From NCBI GenBank assembly GCA_031425735.1, contig JANPJY010000002.1, positions 5,692 through 69,691 on the forward strand: 64,000 bases of DNA. Direction: 5' to 3'. The notes below the pieces were generated by a model. It had not been told where the DNA came from. It was given only the letters and a program-made list of their open reading frames with translations, and ran no database searches. The position numbers and the translations under genes were made by a program. This stretch comes from Akkermansiaceae bacterium. Lineage in GTDB: Bacteria; Verrucomicrobiota; Verrucomicrobiia; Verrucomicrobiales; Akkermansiaceae. Below are positions 12,259 through 16,586 of this stretch, piece by piece; positions within the stretch are counted from its first letter, which is position 1, and every line of letters starts with the position of its first letter.

Positions 12259-15200
12259 ATGAAATTTTTAATCGCTTCATGCGTCAAGTTAGAGCGCAGA
12301 GTCGAGCGGGGTTTCGCCCTGATCGTGACGCTTTCTCTAATGATGCTGCTGTGCGTGATTATATTAAGTTTTCTCAGCTTGAGCTCGGGCTCATTGCGTG
12401 AGTCCTCCTCCTCGATGGCGACGAACAACGCGCGTGCAAACGCGCGGCTCTCGCTGCAACTAGCCATCGGCCAGTTGCAATCGCTGGCTGGCCCGGACAC
12501 GCGCATCACCGCGCCGCGTGTGCCGGAAAATCTAACAGATCCGCTAGATTCCGTGACTCCGGCCATGGGCGTGTGGCGCAGTTGGGAGGGATCGGACCAC
12601 GATAGTAACGGCAGGCCGAAAGCGCCGGACTATAATGCGAAGAGGCAAGTTGGCGACCCCGCCGCTTCGGCAGATGCCGCGGGCAGTGGACGTTTTCTCG
12701 GCTGGCTGACATCTACTGGAGCGGGGACGACACCGGATCCTCGGTCCGTTCCCGGCCTTTTCAGCGAACCAGCGAGCGGACTCATACCACTCGTCTCATC
12801 CCATAGCGTGAAAGAGCCCAAACGCCGGGTATTCGTAGAACCCACGTTAGTCAACGACTCGGCTGGAGCCATCGCGTGGTGGACCAGTGGTGAAAACACC
12901 AAGGCCAATGTCGCCCCAGATCCTAAGCCGTCCGATTCCTCGATGACCGATTGGCAGCAGTATGCACGCGCCCACGCTGTGCCCTCGCCGAAGGACTTCG
13001 GGTTTACGGCATCGCTAAAATCCCAGGCGGTTTCCACAGATACACTCGAACTTATGGCTGATGACAGCGTGGCTGCGGCTGGCAATTTTCATGATCTAAC
13101 AGTGTGGTCGTCCGGTTTGCTGACCAATGCCGCCAATGGTGGATGGAAGCGCGATCTTTCATTAATGACTGAAAAATGGGACGAACTACCCTCCACCAAT
13201 CTCCCGTTTTTCACTCTCAAGCCTGGCTCGAATCTCCGCTACTCCAAAGCCGCGCCACCGCAGACAACCCCATCCACTCATCCAGTTAACCCGCTGCTTT
13301 ACTGGTGGTCCCAATACGCGGGGCAACCGAACTTTGATACCAATCGGCAAATCCCGCCCATTGTCAGTTGGGATTATCTGCGCAATGCCTGCGTCCAATA
13401 CCGCTCACTCATAAATATCAACCCCTCCCAAGGGCAGGTGGGCATGCCGTGGGCGAAGGAAAGCTTCTGGAAAGATCCCGGTGGCGCTCAAAGGGCGTAT
13501 CGCTACGAGTTTCTTGATCAGCCACGCCGCTGGCCAGCATTCAGCCGCGTCCATTTCACGTTCTCTTACGCTTCCGTGCGAGATCCTCTGGATCCCGGCA
13601 AACTCATACCAGGCCTTGTCCTAACCCCGGTAGTTGTCCTGTGGAATCCCTACAACGTCCGAATCACCATTGCTAGCCCGAATTATTATAGGATTCATTA
13701 TGGCAATAGAATCTCACCTATCCAATTCCAATTCACTGTTGGCGCGGAAACACCCTATCCAGTCCGCGATCTCCAGACAATTAATAGTCAACAGACAAGT
13801 ACCATCGACAACTCGATGCAATTGCACGGAAGCACAGGCGCATCGCCCATACCCATAACCTTGAATCCCGGTGAAACCCGTGTCTTTAGCCTGAGTCACA
13901 ATGATATTCGTCGTCCAAGTGGTGCCATGATGCTCTATCCGGGCTACCGGCTGGAGAGCGGTTTATTGTTCACCCGGCTCAAAACGGCGGGAGCCGAGGA
14001 ATCCTTCCCACCGAACACAGAATTCAAAGTGGATCTGACCTTTTTGCAGAATGCCAATACGGGGGACGGACTTGGTTCGTGGTGGTCCCAAGGCCGCGAC
14101 AATACCCAACATGGCCAACGCGCCAGCCGCCAATACATCACATTTAGTCCAACAATCGCAAGGGCATTATGGCAACCCATTTCCGCGGAGGACCTGGGGG
14201 GGCCTGTGACACTATCCCAAGTCGAGGGAAATAGTCAACATCGCAAGTTTATAACCTGCGTGATAGGCCACCGCACAGCCAACGATACCATGATGCCCGG
14301 CAAGGGCTATTTGCAGGCCAATCCGCTCAACTACTACAATGATCTCAGGAGCGTAAACGATCTGGGCGTCACGGGGCGCGAACTAGGAGCCGGCATTAGG
14401 CACCCCGTGAACTCCAGCCTCGACATACAGTTCATTCACGGTGCGCAAAACAGTGAAGATCTGGCCATTGATATATCCACCAACCGCGGCTACGTCGTCG
14501 GCGGCATCGATGGCGCGTCCGGACTAACCAACTGCGTATCGGCCGAAATCCCCACGCGCCCCATCCAGAGCCTTGTCGATCTTCAGCACTTCGATCTGCG
14601 CAACTGCAATCCCGTGCCGCCATTCCAATTTAATATTTTCGGCAATAGCCATGCACTCCCCTTGCTGCCGCCCAATGCGGTAGTGCGGCCCGATTTTCCC
14701 GATGCAACGCGCCTGCAGTACGACGACTCCTACTGCCTGAACCACACATTTTTTGATGATTGGTTCGTCTCTTCCATTGCCCCAGACATCAGGGACTGGA
14801 CCAATCAAAACGAGCGCAGTTTGGAGAGCGTTTATAAGGATTTCCTGGCCAATTCCAAAGATTCGACTAGCGGCACACCTTTGCCAAATTCCATGTACCG
14901 GCCAACATTGGAAGCCCCTGGTCCGGACATTGCCACGGCATACGACCGTGACGTGAGGCCCGCCGATTCCTACCGTCACATTGCCGCAAAACTTACCGTC
15001 GATGGGATGTTCAACGTCAACAGCGTCTCGGTAAAGGCATGGAAAGCGTTGTTAGGCCATGCACTTGGCCAGCGCCAACCCTACCTTGCTGATGACGGCG
15101 CAAGTTGGCAAGCCAAGCTGGCTCCCGAGCGGGATCATGTTGTAAGCCGCATGAGTGTCGCTGGTGCCGGTGCCGTCGGTCTCGATGCGCCGCCCCAAGG

Positions 15201-15876
15201 AGTCTCCAGCATTGCGATGGGATTCTCAGGGCACCGTGTGCTCACTGATCAGCAAATCGAGGCGTTGGCAGGTGAAATCGTAACCCAGATCCGCCGCCGC
15301 GGTCCCTTTCTCTCGCTTTCTGAATTCATCAACCGGCGGCTTACCGATTCTGCTAGCGAAAAAGACCTCGCGCTTGGCGGCGCGGTGGAGGCAGCCCTCG
15401 CTGCGCTTGCCGCCCGCGGCCCGACTGATCCGGAAAATCCATACGGTACTCTTCAATTAAACTCTAAACGCATCACGGAGGCAGTCGTTAATGCTATTCC
15501 TGAAATAGCTGAGGCCAAGTACCTTTTCCCTGAAGCCGCCTTGGGCTGGACTGCTTATGGCTTGCCGGGCTGGATCCGCCAAGCCGACATCCTCCGGCCG
15601 CTTGCCCCGGTCCTATCCGTCCGCGACGATACTTTCGTCATCCGTGCTTACGGTGATGCGCGCGACAAGAATGGCAGGGTTACCGCCCGCGCATGGTGCG
15701 AAGCCACCGTGCAGCGCGTCGCTGGTTACGTAGATTCGCGCGATGCTGACACGGACATTCCCGTTGTCGGAACCGACTCGGCCAATGATCAGTTTCTTCA
15801 GGCTCAGATCAACGCCCGTTTCGGCCGTGAGTTCCGTCTCATCTCCTTCCGTTGGCTAAATCCCCGTGAAATCTAA
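12259..15876 (+). CDS. Giant GspK/PilX-like minor pseudopilin (possibly Verru_Chthon cassette protein A family)
   Basis: Start chosen at the internal ATG (MKFLIAS..). The N-terminus [19 protein letters not shown] is a prepilin-like hydrophobic helix lacking Glu+5, as in GspK. The C-terminal part has a GspK-like segment [34 protein letters not shown] and ends [14 protein letters not shown]. Confidence 0.6.
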   Translation: [1205 protein letters not shown]

Positions 15877-15893
15877 CACACCCACTGCACTTT

Positions 15894-16586
15894 ATGACCC
15901 ATCTCCGGAAAACCCTAGTCCTTCTTTGGACCATTGCCGCCCTCGCGCCGATCACCGCTTATTCTCAAAAGGCGTCTGACCGCAGCGTCCGCTGCGTTTT
16001 TTTTAAGCGCCCTGTGGAGATCTCAAAGACCGCAGTGCTGGTCCATGCCGGCGGCAGCACCCCGATTTCTCTTCCCCCTATGAATTTATCGGATCCAGCT
16101 GCGCTACCCGCCGGTGACCTTGTTATGGCGGTGCTGCCAAATCCCCCTGCCGTAGGTAGCCCGATCCCGCCCGGCGCACCCACAGTGAAAATTCCCGCAG
16201 CTTGGTCACGGGTTTTGCTCCTGTTCTTTCCCGATCCCGCAAACAAGGTTTTTCCCGTAAAAGTGTTACCTTATGATGGATCGATAGACTCTTTCAAACC
16301 CGGGGAGATGTTTTGCCTGAACCTTTCCAATGCGACAGTTGGAGGCACCCTGGGTGAGGTGAAATTCAAGGTCAGCCCCGGCAAAACCGCTGTCCTGCAG
16401 GCACCTCTCCGCCAAGCTGGAGCTTACCCCGTGGCGATCGATTGCCTGCTCGAAGGGGAAACCAGCCTGCGTCCGCTCTGCCGCACCGTCTGGCGGAATG
16501 ACATGAAAATCCGCAAGATCCTCTTCATTGTGAATGCCGACGACCGACCGGCGCCGCGAATCTGGTCGGTCATAGAATACCTGTAA
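15894..16586 (+). CDS. Secreted protein of unknown function, co-oriented 17 nt downstream of the giant pseudopilin gene
   Basis: 230-aa ORF with a signal peptide (LVLLWTIAALAPITAYSQ). No motif was recognised. Confidence 0.55.
   Translation: MTHLRKTLVLLWTIAALAPITAYSQKASDRSVRCVFFKRPVEISKTAVLVHAGGSTPISLPPMNLSDPAALPAGDLVMAVLPNPPAVGSPIPPGAPTVKIPAAWSRVLLLFFPDPANKVFPVKVLPYDGSIDSFKPGEMFCLNLSNATVGGTLGEVKFKVSPGKTAVLQAPLRQAGAYPVAIDCLLEGETSLRPLCRTVWRNDMKIRKILFIVNADDRPAPRIWSVIEYL

Follow-up and report, generated by a model that had tools for sequence, protein, structure and literature searches.

Two adjacent genes in a 64,000-nucleotide stretch of an Akkermansiaceae genome (hereafter the window), one encoding a 1205-residue protein (the giant) and the other a 230-residue secreted protein (the partner), define a large, unnamed and previously unmodelled family of Verrucomicrobia. 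We propose that together they form a self-contained module for the tip of a type 4 filament, which could be a T2SS pseudopilus or a type IV pilus and would have its machinery encoded elsewhere in the genome, and we assign this reading a probability of roughly 0.55. Many homologues and confident AlphaFold2 models establish that both genes are real.

The open reading frame of the giant spans positions 12184-15876 of the forward strand. Its first ATG, at 12259, gives 3618 nt encoding 1205 residues and a stop codon, with no alternative start codon between this ATG and the Gly-Phe junction described below. The partner frame begins 17 nt past the giant's stop (Table 1). The initial annotation had described the giant and its secreted partner in these terms; the coordinates and features agree with the sequence, and all three peptides it had quoted from the N-terminal and C-terminal segments are present in the translated frame. 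Upstream of the pair, the presumed promoter region holds a single sigma-70-like consensus match (12070-12099, 9/12), no more than chance would provide in a region of 404 nt. Among ~40 window ORFs scanned with Pfam, none matched a secretin, a GspE/PilB ATPase, a platform protein or a prepilin peptidase, in keeping with the earlier remark that secretion and pilus genes are missing nearby, and no GspI/J-like or other pilin genes adjoin the giant in the window. A six-frame motif scan of the 64 kb for class III signals returned only two ORFs, the giant and a 132-residue pilin at 49315-49713 on the reverse strand, 33 kb away, which is the nearest and only other prepilin in the window. The window also contains a GH20 gene.

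Table 1. Features of the giant-partner locus (window positions).
Feature	Position	Strand	Basis or remark
Intergenic region, presumed promoter	11855..12258	+	404 nt, upstream of the pair, common to a divergently transcribed gene
Putative class III (prepilin-type) leader, 18 aa, invariant Gly at -1	12259..12312	+	Junction conserved in homologues
GspK-homologous N-terminal pilin segment: long alpha-1 helix (mature residues 2-59) and first beta-strands	12313..12579	+	hhalign, AlphaFold2
Inserted module, ~780 aa, mostly beta and coil, approximate boundaries	12580..14925	+	No relatives detectable outside the superfamily
Hypervariable beta-rich block in the insert (residues about 470-720)	~13666-14418	+	Conservation profile
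C-terminal ~315 aa: putative GspK-like alpha-domain, then closing beta-strands	14926..15876	+	hhalign, AlphaFold2, conservation
Partner gene: 230-aa secreted protein, two tandem Ig-like beta-sandwich domains	15894..16586	+	Synteny, AlphaFold2, Foldseek

The N-terminus of the giant reads, family-wide, as a GspK-type prepilin signal without Glu5, as the initial annotation had recognized. The junction G|F-A-L-[IV]-[VI]-T-L is invariant in all 56 homologues whose N-terminus is complete, the leaders that precede it are basic and variable in sequence and length (4-100 residues as called), and position +5 is occupied by V, I, A, L or S and never by Glu (Val in the window giant). The leader is probably cleaved after Gly18 by a prepilin peptidase. 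The idea that the helix is a mere signal anchor, with no prepilin peptidase site in homologues, fails because the GspK-type signal holds for the whole family. Profile comparison with hhalign aligned precursor residues 14-107 with GspK residues 4-99 over 94-96 columns (probability 93-94 %, E 1e-7 to 3e-7), at a score of 51 versus 13 ± 2.5 for shuffled columns. This significant match argues that the N-terminal ~95 residues are homologous to GspK and that the homology reaches past the membrane helix. The giant nonetheless differs from GspK in scoring far below the cut-off of the curated GspK model NF037980 (16.6 versus 130 bits over the whole protein) and in having no Pfam T2SSK domain. PF21687 and PF03934 found no match in the window giant, and PF03934 matched one of 38 family members (E 0.026). 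Matches of the NCBIfam GspK and TIGR02600 models are confined to this N-terminal segment, at positions 1-61. The pilin signature IPR012902/N_methyl is not detected in the giant, which is therefore missed by pilin surveys based on that signature.

Conservation across the superfamily peaks in the C-terminal region, distant members sharing mainly profile positions ~700-1167. This region carries the invariant motifs F-N-V-N-S (918-922), a ten-residue motif (1014-1023) and R-D-D-T-F (1122-1126), and the family's FNVN, RGPF..SEF and RDDTF motifs coincide with the conserved GspK positions FNLN/INVNT, RP..G...V..F and S..F. With a divergent alignment, hhalign matched residues 900-1060 to GspK 98-266 (score 24.3; shuffles 13.2 ± 2.0, maximum 18.7) and residues 1090-1205 to GspK 252-323 (score 21.2; shuffles 12.6 ± 1.9, maximum 15.3). 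Both matches are co-linear with GspK and exceed all 25 column shuffles (z ~4-5.5), but at an HH probability of 3-6 %; with a closer, less diverse alignment, one of 40 shuffles attained the score of the C-terminal match. In a whole-chain Foldseek search of the giant against the PDB, 3CI0_K ranked second at a non-significant E of 0.47 (TM 0.15). Taken together, these comparisons weakly suggest that the last ~300 residues may resemble the remainder of GspK co-linearly. The C-terminal likeness to GspK that had been pointed out earlier is thus upheld by co-linearity and by the shuffles of the divergent alignment, but not by HH probability or by Foldseek.

Between these ends, the initial annotation had counted about 1000 unrecognized residues, a description that applies to ~800 of them. 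The central insert has no family match in Pfam, NCBIfam, PADLOC or PHROGs, a PDB profile search gave 0 matches, and Foldseek returned nothing at E <= 0.001 for the giant in either the PDB or BFVD, despite a pLDDT of 90. The AlphaFold2 model of the giant (pLDDT 90.3, pTM 0.91) begins with a 58-residue helix (2-59); towards the C-terminus, mature residues 979-1094 are rich in helix and 1107-1182 then form long beta-strands. Conservation is highest at the two GspK-like ends and lowest in the middle block, where identity across residues ~470-720 drops to 0.18-0.31 within the close family and to 0.09-0.26 among distant members. This pattern fits a constant carrier, formed by the GspK-like ends, that would bear a variable effector in the middle.

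The partner has a hydrophobic, Sec-type N-terminus in which a lipobox cysteine is absent; C184/C196 are an invariant pair of cysteines, and the motif P-R-I-W-S is conserved at the C-terminus. Its AlphaFold2 model is all-beta (pLDDT 87.3), and the best Foldseek matches are the extracellular tandem Ig-like domains of PepT1/PepT2 (E 1e-5 to 2e-4, TM 0.62); neither a beta-propeller nor any detectable similarity to PilY1 or CofJ emerged from the same search. As modelled, the protein is a binding scaffold built of two Ig-like domains and not an enzyme fold. The two proteins diverge together (r = 0.94, Mantel 0/500), and comparison of the window pair with another locus gave 37 % identity between the partners (E 2e-44), the giants themselves sharing only 40 %. 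An interaction between giant and partner would fit their synteny and co-divergence, patterns that common descent by itself can also produce.

A first search for homologues of the giant gave 628 matches at E <= 1e-3, nearly all of the ~120 matches listed being full-length, and an exhaustive search delineated a superfamily of 5310 cluster representatives, with 435 loci in species genomes and often several per genome. In the neighbourhood survey that the initial annotation had proposed, the partner lies directly 3' of the giant in 77 of the 81 loci with room for it; it also adjoins the giant in distant superfamily members, and giant-partner units occur in tandem arrays and in multiple copies per genome. 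A Glu5-type (canonical) prepilin ORF was present within ±8 kb in 5 of 85 loci, and a trio was never found beside the giant. At none of the ~90 loci examined do genes for filament machinery, a prepilin peptidase or pilins of the GspH/I/J type adjoin the pair, nor do homologous loci have a gsp/pil operon setting. Separation of the pair from pilus and secretion genes is a family-wide rule and not a quirk of this genome. The term orphan, previously applied to the giant, is misleading, since the gene belongs to a conserved, often multi-copy two-gene module and is no stray cassette remnant. Flanking genes differ at every locus compared. Glycan-degrading genes flank some copies, for example GH88 and KduI at locus L002.

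The initial annotation had also suggested that the giant may belong to the Verru_Chthon cassette protein A family (TIGR02600), which we take to be defined by co-occurrence with the prepilin-type proteins B, C and D. Resemblances do exist: both proteins are ~1200-1300 residues long (TIGR02600 has a model length of 1296), both come from Verrucomicrobia, and both begin with a GspK-like helix. UniRef, moreover, gives the cassette name to three homologues of the giant, and the model aligns with the giant's first 60 residues (E 5e-5). The HMM searches advised there nevertheless speak against membership. Like the GspK model, TIGR02600 matches the N-terminus of the window giant, over model positions 1-59 only, and its score of 21.5 bits compares with a cut-off of 332.3. 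Among 15 other members, eight near homologues reached at most 28 bits and seven distant ones at most 32 bits, the three that bear the UniRef label also falling far below the cut-off, and in none of the 16 does any stretch past model position 63 match. The companion throughout the family is, furthermore, a non-pilin 230-residue protein and not three prepilins. We therefore reject the assignment to cassette protein A; strict membership is refuted, and that the giant is a true TIGR02600 member that has lost companions B, C and D is very improbable. Literature searches returned no papers on the Verru_Chthon cassette name and nothing on the giant family.

The comparison with GspK/PilK, the minor (pseudo)pilin at the tip of T2SS pseudopili and type IVa pili (3CI0, GspK-GspI-GspJ), is closer. 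Shared with the giant are a class III signal with a -1 Gly, the absence of Glu5, the homologous N-terminal ~95 residues with co-linear conserved motifs, and a pilin fold that appears to be interrupted by an inserted domain, with a helix-rich C-terminal region and then closing beta-strands. In contrast to GspK/PilK, the giant is four times larger (1205 versus ~325 residues), has an extra ~800-residue insert without a known fold match, is not encoded with GspH/I/J or machinery, has a non-pilin Ig-like protein as its companion and frequently occurs in several copies. Modular pilins are an established design, seen also in GspK and ComZ, where the modules are inserted in the beta-sheet; modular type 4 pilins named to date include PilB and PilC of S. 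sanguinis, ComZ of T. thermophilus and CofB of ETEC, and the largest in an InterPro survey has 860 residues (PMC8179133). The giant likewise combines a class III signal and a GspK-like segment with ~800 residues (pLDDT ~90) unrelated to any pilin, a pilin carrier with a bulky effector module that is likely displayed at the tip, and, as in ComZ and GspK, the module would be inserted into the pilin fold and not appended. Unlike those proteins, it exceeds 860 residues, its module matches no known domain, and its obligate co-encoded partner is not among their described features. Association of a tip-capping minor pilin with a Sec-exported non-pilin binder, which we suggest for the present pair, is found for PilK with PilC/PilY1 and for CofB with CofJ (bioRxiv 10.64898/2026.09.18.752573; PMC10191384), and PilK is bound and stabilized by its non-pilin protein via beta-strand augmentation (bioRxiv 10.64898/2026.09.18.752573). 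Here, however, the sizes are reversed, the pilin being the giant and the non-pilin protein small, and the Ig-like partner has neither a beta-propeller nor a detectable likeness to PilY1 or CofJ.

In the proposed mechanism, the giant would act as a GspK/PilK-type minor pseudopilin of modular build, made with a class III signal peptide, inserted into the inner membrane and freed by prepilin peptidase of its 18-residue leader. Such filaments grow from the tip towards the base, and their assembly begins with a complex of minor pilins that has a subunit without Glu5 as its cap (PMC10191384); because it lacks Glu5, the giant would be the first, capping subunit of a filament growing in this direction. 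Its pilin fold would be split, with a GspK-like core made of the N-terminal ~95 and C-terminal ~300 residues, and the ~800-residue insert with its hypervariable block may be displayed at the filament tip and bind ligand as an adhesin or substrate-capture head. It speaks against such display that a globular head of ~130 kDa is large for secretin passage, although T2SS substrates and PilY1 are about as big. The partner, exported separately via Sec, would most likely bind and stabilize the giant in the periplasm or ride along at the tip, by analogy with the docking of non-pilin proteins on K-type minor pilins. Divergent copies, several per genome, would then supply alternative, exchangeable tips.

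Against a tip module stand the lack of filament genes near any locus, the weak C-terminal likeness to GspK, the missing Pfam T2SSK domains and the lack of a significant whole-chain Foldseek match. The first two of these, together with a bulk of the giant that has no pilin-like or other known relatives, would also suit a membrane-anchored envelope protein that never polymerizes, its helix serving only as an inner-membrane anchor, cleaved or uncleaved, while the large domain and the Ig-like partner act in the periplasm, for instance in polymer binding or envelope organization. We consider this unlikely, as the invariant Gly-Phe junction behind unrelated leaders is a signature of peptidase processing, GspK homology runs to residue ~107, past the membrane segment, and the conserved ends map co-linearly onto complete GspK.

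A different function for the head is conceivable as well, namely that the central module is a filament-delivered enzyme or toxin, a pilin-tethered catalytic domain (glycan-degrading, for example), rather than a binding module. Ten invariant polar residues in the insert (K215, D299, R423, N463, E763, D779, D822, N828, D833 and D834) could be read this way, as could the GH88 and KduI genes at L002 and the GH20 gene of the window, and modular pilins bearing a peptidase are known (PMC8179133). Yet no enzyme family or fold was matched, the majority of invariant residues in the giant family are Gly, Pro or Trp, and the flanks, which differ in every locus, therefore indicate no linked pathway. Invariance of Gly, Pro and Trp is typical of structural cores, and we regard a catalytic head as quite improbable.

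Returning to the tip module, a broader and speculative extension, to which we give low odds, is that Verrucomicrobia hold a repertoire of exchangeable tip cassettes, each made of a giant K-type pilin, a hypervariable ligand-binding head of new fold and a dedicated Ig-like partner that replaces GspI/GspJ or PilY1 by docking on the pilin core. If this were true, a single filament machine, shared by all the cassettes, could be fitted with one tip or another and so capture a range of polymers or surfaces, and these exchangeable tips would be the pilus-based equivalent of the diversified glycan-binding proteins that Bacteroidota carry on their surface.

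The giant, a GspK-like protein of 1205 aa (1206 codons with the stop), begins at the first ATG of a somewhat longer reading frame, and no alternative start codon lies between this ATG and a downstream Gly-Phe junction. Its partner, a 230-aa protein whose hydrophobic Sec-type N-terminus has no lipobox, begins 17 nt past the giant. The initial annotation had described both genes, and its coordinates agree with ours, as do the three peptides that it quoted from the giant. Its description of the giant as an orphan, however, has to be given up. In four hand-checked neighbourhoods a gene of ~230 aa follows the giant while the remaining flanks all differ, and in a scripted survey of 85 loci, the partner lies directly downstream of 77 of the 81 giants with room for one and is truly missing in four, making the pair a conserved two-gene module. 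Even distant members (28-30 % identity) retain the partner, tandem arrays included. For a giant that is 40 % identical, the partner is 37 % identical (E 2e-44), and the pairwise identities of giants and partners are correlated (r = 0.94, 73 pairs, Mantel 0/500), a correlation to which shared ancestry contributes. Only 5 of the 85 loci have a Glu5-type prepilin ORF within +/-8 kb.

Positions of the features in the window, and of model and profile matches along the giant
Feature	Position	Strand	Details
Paralogue of the 912-aa protein	7170-9047	-	625 aa
Paralogue of the 625-aa protein	9116-11854	-	912 aa
Giant, full reading frame	12184-15876	+	first ATG at 12259
Giant, coding sequence	12259-15876	+	1205 aa
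Partner	15894-16586	+	230 aa
Terminator-like hairpin	15981-15996	+	6 bp, 5 GC, then eight T
Phd/YefM-like antitoxin and PIN-domain toxin	16879-17585	+	85 aa and 150 aa, 4-nt overlap
Acido-Lenti-1 small RNA match	29733-29777	+	41.5 bits (gathering score 37)
TPP riboswitch	31515-31628	+	68.8 bits
thiC	31619-33676		
PSCyt2/PSD1 (DUF1549/DUF1553) protein, then DUF1501 protein	42363-45595	+	
Prepilin-led gene run	46004-49713	-	six ORFs
Small canonical prepilin	49315-49713	-	132 aa; GFTLLE, Pfam N_methyl
TIGR02600 (NCBIfam) on giant	within residues 16-76		21.5 bits, cut-off 332.3
GspK NF037980 (NCBIfam) on giant	within residues 16-76		16.6 bits, cut-off 130
GspK 98-266, divergent alignment	giant residues 900-1060		score 24.3; shuffled 13.2 +/- 2.0, max 18.7
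GspK 252-323, divergent alignment	giant residues 1090-1205		score 21.2; shuffled 12.6 +/- 1.9, max 15.3

The N-terminus of the giant has the same layout in all 56 aligned homologues in which it is complete. A basic-rich leader of variable length and sequence ends in an invariant Gly, which is followed by F-A-L-[IV]-[VI]-T-L and a hydrophobic stretch; Glu is absent from position +5, where the residue is V, I, A, L or S. Judged by its sequence, this junction looks like a prepilin-peptidase-type site rather than part of a plain signal anchor. When compared by hhalign with a GspK profile, built on 36 diverse bona fide sequences from an E. coli K-12 gspK seed, precursor residues 14-107 of the giant match GspK 4-99 with 93-94 % probability (E 1e-7; score 51, versus 13 +/- 2.5 in column-shuffled controls), and the match extends well beyond the membrane helix. 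The GspK-like prepilin N-terminus without Glu+5 that had been proposed at the outset is thus borne out.

At the C-terminus the likeness is fainter. A default hhalign run of the full family against GspK returned the N-terminal match alone, and segment-wise runs with shuffled-column controls were then used. The close-family alignment matches residues 880-1205 with GspK 92-322 (E 0.01, 4 % probability) at a score of 25.6, versus 15.4 +/- 3.3 in shuffles, 1 of 40 of which reached it. With a divergent alignment of 38 sequences, reaching down to 27 % identity, two C-terminal sub-segments are co-linear with GspK and exceed all 25 shuffles. Conserved GspK positions meet invariant motifs of the giant family, FNVNS falling on FNLN and [15 protein letters not shown] on RP..G...V..F, while the invariant RDDTF coincides with the conserved S..F of GspK. 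Pfam T2SSK is found in 1 of the 38 members (E 0.026), and 3CI0_K, the GspK chain of the GspK-GspI-GspJ structure 3CI0, ranks second among all PDB chains in a whole-chain Foldseek search, yet at E 0.47 and TM 0.15. The GspK-like C-terminus claimed earlier is thus weakly supported: co-linearity and the divergent-alignment controls speak for it, whereas HH probability stays at 3-6 % and one close-family shuffle equals the score. From these alignments, a 'split GspK' architecture is likely.

AlphaFold2 modeled the mature giant (1187 aa; 118-sequence alignment) with a mean pLDDT of 90.3 and a pTM of 0.91, placing a helix at 2-59, a middle that is mainly beta and coil and then, after a helix-rich region (979-1094), long beta-strands (1107-1182). 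Identity to the window giant peaks at both GspK-like ends (0.5-0.6) and is lowest near residues 470-720, at 0.18-0.31 within the close family and 0.09-0.26 among distant members, as would be expected if a constant carrier bore a variable head. The partner was modeled (pLDDT 87.3) as an all-beta protein of two sandwich domains, and its top structural matches are the extracellular tandem Ig-like domains of PepT1/PepT2 (E 1e-5 to 2e-4, TM 0.62), with no enzyme among the matches. Two cysteines of the partner, C184 and C196, are wholly or almost wholly conserved, as is a PRIWS motif at its C-terminus. The partner was also considered as a PapD-like chaperone; no chaperone-usher chaperone appears among its top 50 structural matches, and the comparison remains a functional analogy only.

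A sequence search with the giant gave 628 matches at E <= 1e-3. Nearly all of the ~120 matches listed are full-length (about 1130-1240 aa) and come from Luteolibacter, Haloferula, Roseibacillus and other Verrucomicrobiales; among them, the closest is 76 % identical and most are about 40 % identical. With the family profile, an exhaustive HMMER search reached 5310 cluster representatives (E <= 1e-3), 3008 of them at E <= 1e-30; the remoter ones share chiefly profile positions ~700-1167. With one genome taken per species, 435 loci hold a relative, and the number of copies rises to between two and four in several genomes, partly as tandems. Isolates that encode the pair include Haloferula rosea KCTC 22201, H. 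sargassicola NBRC 104335, Roseibacillus persicicus KCTC 12988 and Luteolibacter yonseiensis. Head-to-tail arrays of two or three giant-plus-partner units are present at loci L034 (296-11308), L087 (3-9202) and L012 (3533-12271), and L036 encodes a second giant on the opposite strand, which is highly divergent (493 bits) and whose partner is just as divergent (38 bits). A 1993-aa protein in the EukProt eukaryotic set (P0011), with 35 % identity over 96 % of the giant's length and also PF02021, stems most likely from bacterial contamination of a eukaryotic assembly or from a gene model mis-fused there.

The genes around the pair vary. The divergently transcribed paralogues just upstream (31 % identity, E 8e-68), in which Pfam finds only fn3 repeats, in the 912-aa protein, are not kept beside the giant in other genomes, and the type II toxin-antitoxin pair directly downstream of the partner is missing from the homologous loci inspected. 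Promoter and terminator scans around the pair were uninformative. A hairpin 88 nt inside the partner ORF is probably coincidental, because its T-run encodes a conserved VFFK motif; it could attenuate expression of the partner. Elsewhere in the window, the TPP riboswitch lies directly 5' of thiC, the Acido-Lenti-1 match adjoins a lysyl-tRNA synthetase gene, and the PSCyt2/PSD1 and DUF1501 genes form a pair typical of Planctomycetes and Verrucomicrobia, in keeping with the phylum inferred for the window. Exact-protein look-ups with the genes at the window edges, meant to extend the view past them, gave no match on record. Behind the 132-aa prepilin, five ORFs follow on the same strand (154, 248, 277, 160 and 265 aa), four without a Pfam family and the last a DUF3108 protein. 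This run might be a minimal operon associated with a pilus; an Akkermansia Amuc_1100-type cluster was considered for these 46-49.7 kb genes and set aside, sequence support being absent and the PDB giving no sequence match.

We favor, at a probability of roughly 55 %, a reading in which giant and partner form a filament-tip module. The core idea of a GspK-like giant pseudopilin was largely right. Our analysis shows the conservation of the pair, a processing-type junction, N-terminal homology with GspK and confidently predicted folds; the steps that follow are inferred from these. In the type 4 superfamily, filament assembly begins at the tip with a minor-pilin complex that a subunit without Glu5 caps, and proceeds toward the base (PMC10191384). 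By its class III signal, the giant would enter the inner membrane, be cleaved after Gly18 and, without Glu5, cap and prime a type 4 filament whose machinery is encoded elsewhere. The ~800-residue insert with its hypervariable block may then be shown at the tip and bind a ligand, while the Sec-exported, Ig-like partner would bind and stabilise the giant or travel along with it, and several copies of the pair could supply alternative tips. Partner binding has precedents: PilC/PilY1 uses beta-strand augmentation to bind and stabilise PilK (bioRxiv 10.64898/2026.09.18.752573), and CofJ, a secreted protein, is bound by CofB (PMC10191384).

That the giant is instead a membrane-anchored envelope protein that does not polymerise is rather unlikely. 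None of the ~40 window ORFs scanned against Pfam matched a secretin, a GspE/PilB-type ATPase, a platform protein or a prepilin peptidase, and a six-frame motif scan of the 64 kb found class III signals in the giant and the 132-aa pilin only, in agreement with the initial view that secretion and pilus genes are missing nearby; on the other side stand the invariant junction and a GspK homology that outruns the membrane helix. A head bearing an enzyme rather than a binding function is improbable: the giant model has no whole-chain Foldseek match in PDB or BFVD at E <= 0.001. A solved-structure profile search with the family gave 0 matches even at E 10.

Least probable is true membership of the Verru_Chthon cassette protein A family, as had been suggested. 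Pfam finds no match in the giant, and both sub-threshold NCBIfam matches are N-terminal; eight near homologues (three of them UniRef-named 'Verru_Chthon cassette protein A') and seven distant members are likewise sub-threshold. We reject TIGR02600 membership because the giant and these 15 relatives all score below the cut-off. UniRef gives the cassette name to P0044, P0110 and P0115, homologues scoring 0-25 bits (cut-off 332), which looks like over-propagated annotation; some public entries thus bear the name while under that model's cut-off. No canonical cassette-A protein for direct comparison occurred among the homologous loci searched, and no paper on the cassette name or the giant family was found. 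An origin from a phage or defence system was also dismissed, PADLOC and PHROGs giving no match for giant or partner.

The closest kinds to the giant are the GspK/PilK tip pseudopilins and modular pilins, in which a module is grafted onto the pilin fold or, as in GspK and ComZ, inserted in it (PMC8179133). The giant differs from them in its size (1205 aa, where GspK has ~325 and the largest surveyed modular pilin 860; PMC8179133), an insert without known relatives, genes that stand apart from pilin operons, an obligate non-pilin partner and a family on which pilin signatures fail. Because modular-pilin surveys use database signatures, and no N_methyl, Pfam or NCBIfam match exceeds threshold, they miss this family, and thousands of members in environmental Verrucomicrobia, often several per genome, pass unnoticed by annotation. 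As the function of the pair is one that we infer, its practical value is limited. Type 4 filaments are versatile because of what their tips display, and if our filament-tip reading is right, the modular-pilin design extends to proteins of about 1200 residues whose inserted module has an unknown fold, and it gains a new element, the obligate non-pilin partner. The giant family would then open a route to attachment or substrate capture by polymer degraders that are abundant in freshwater, soil and the sea.
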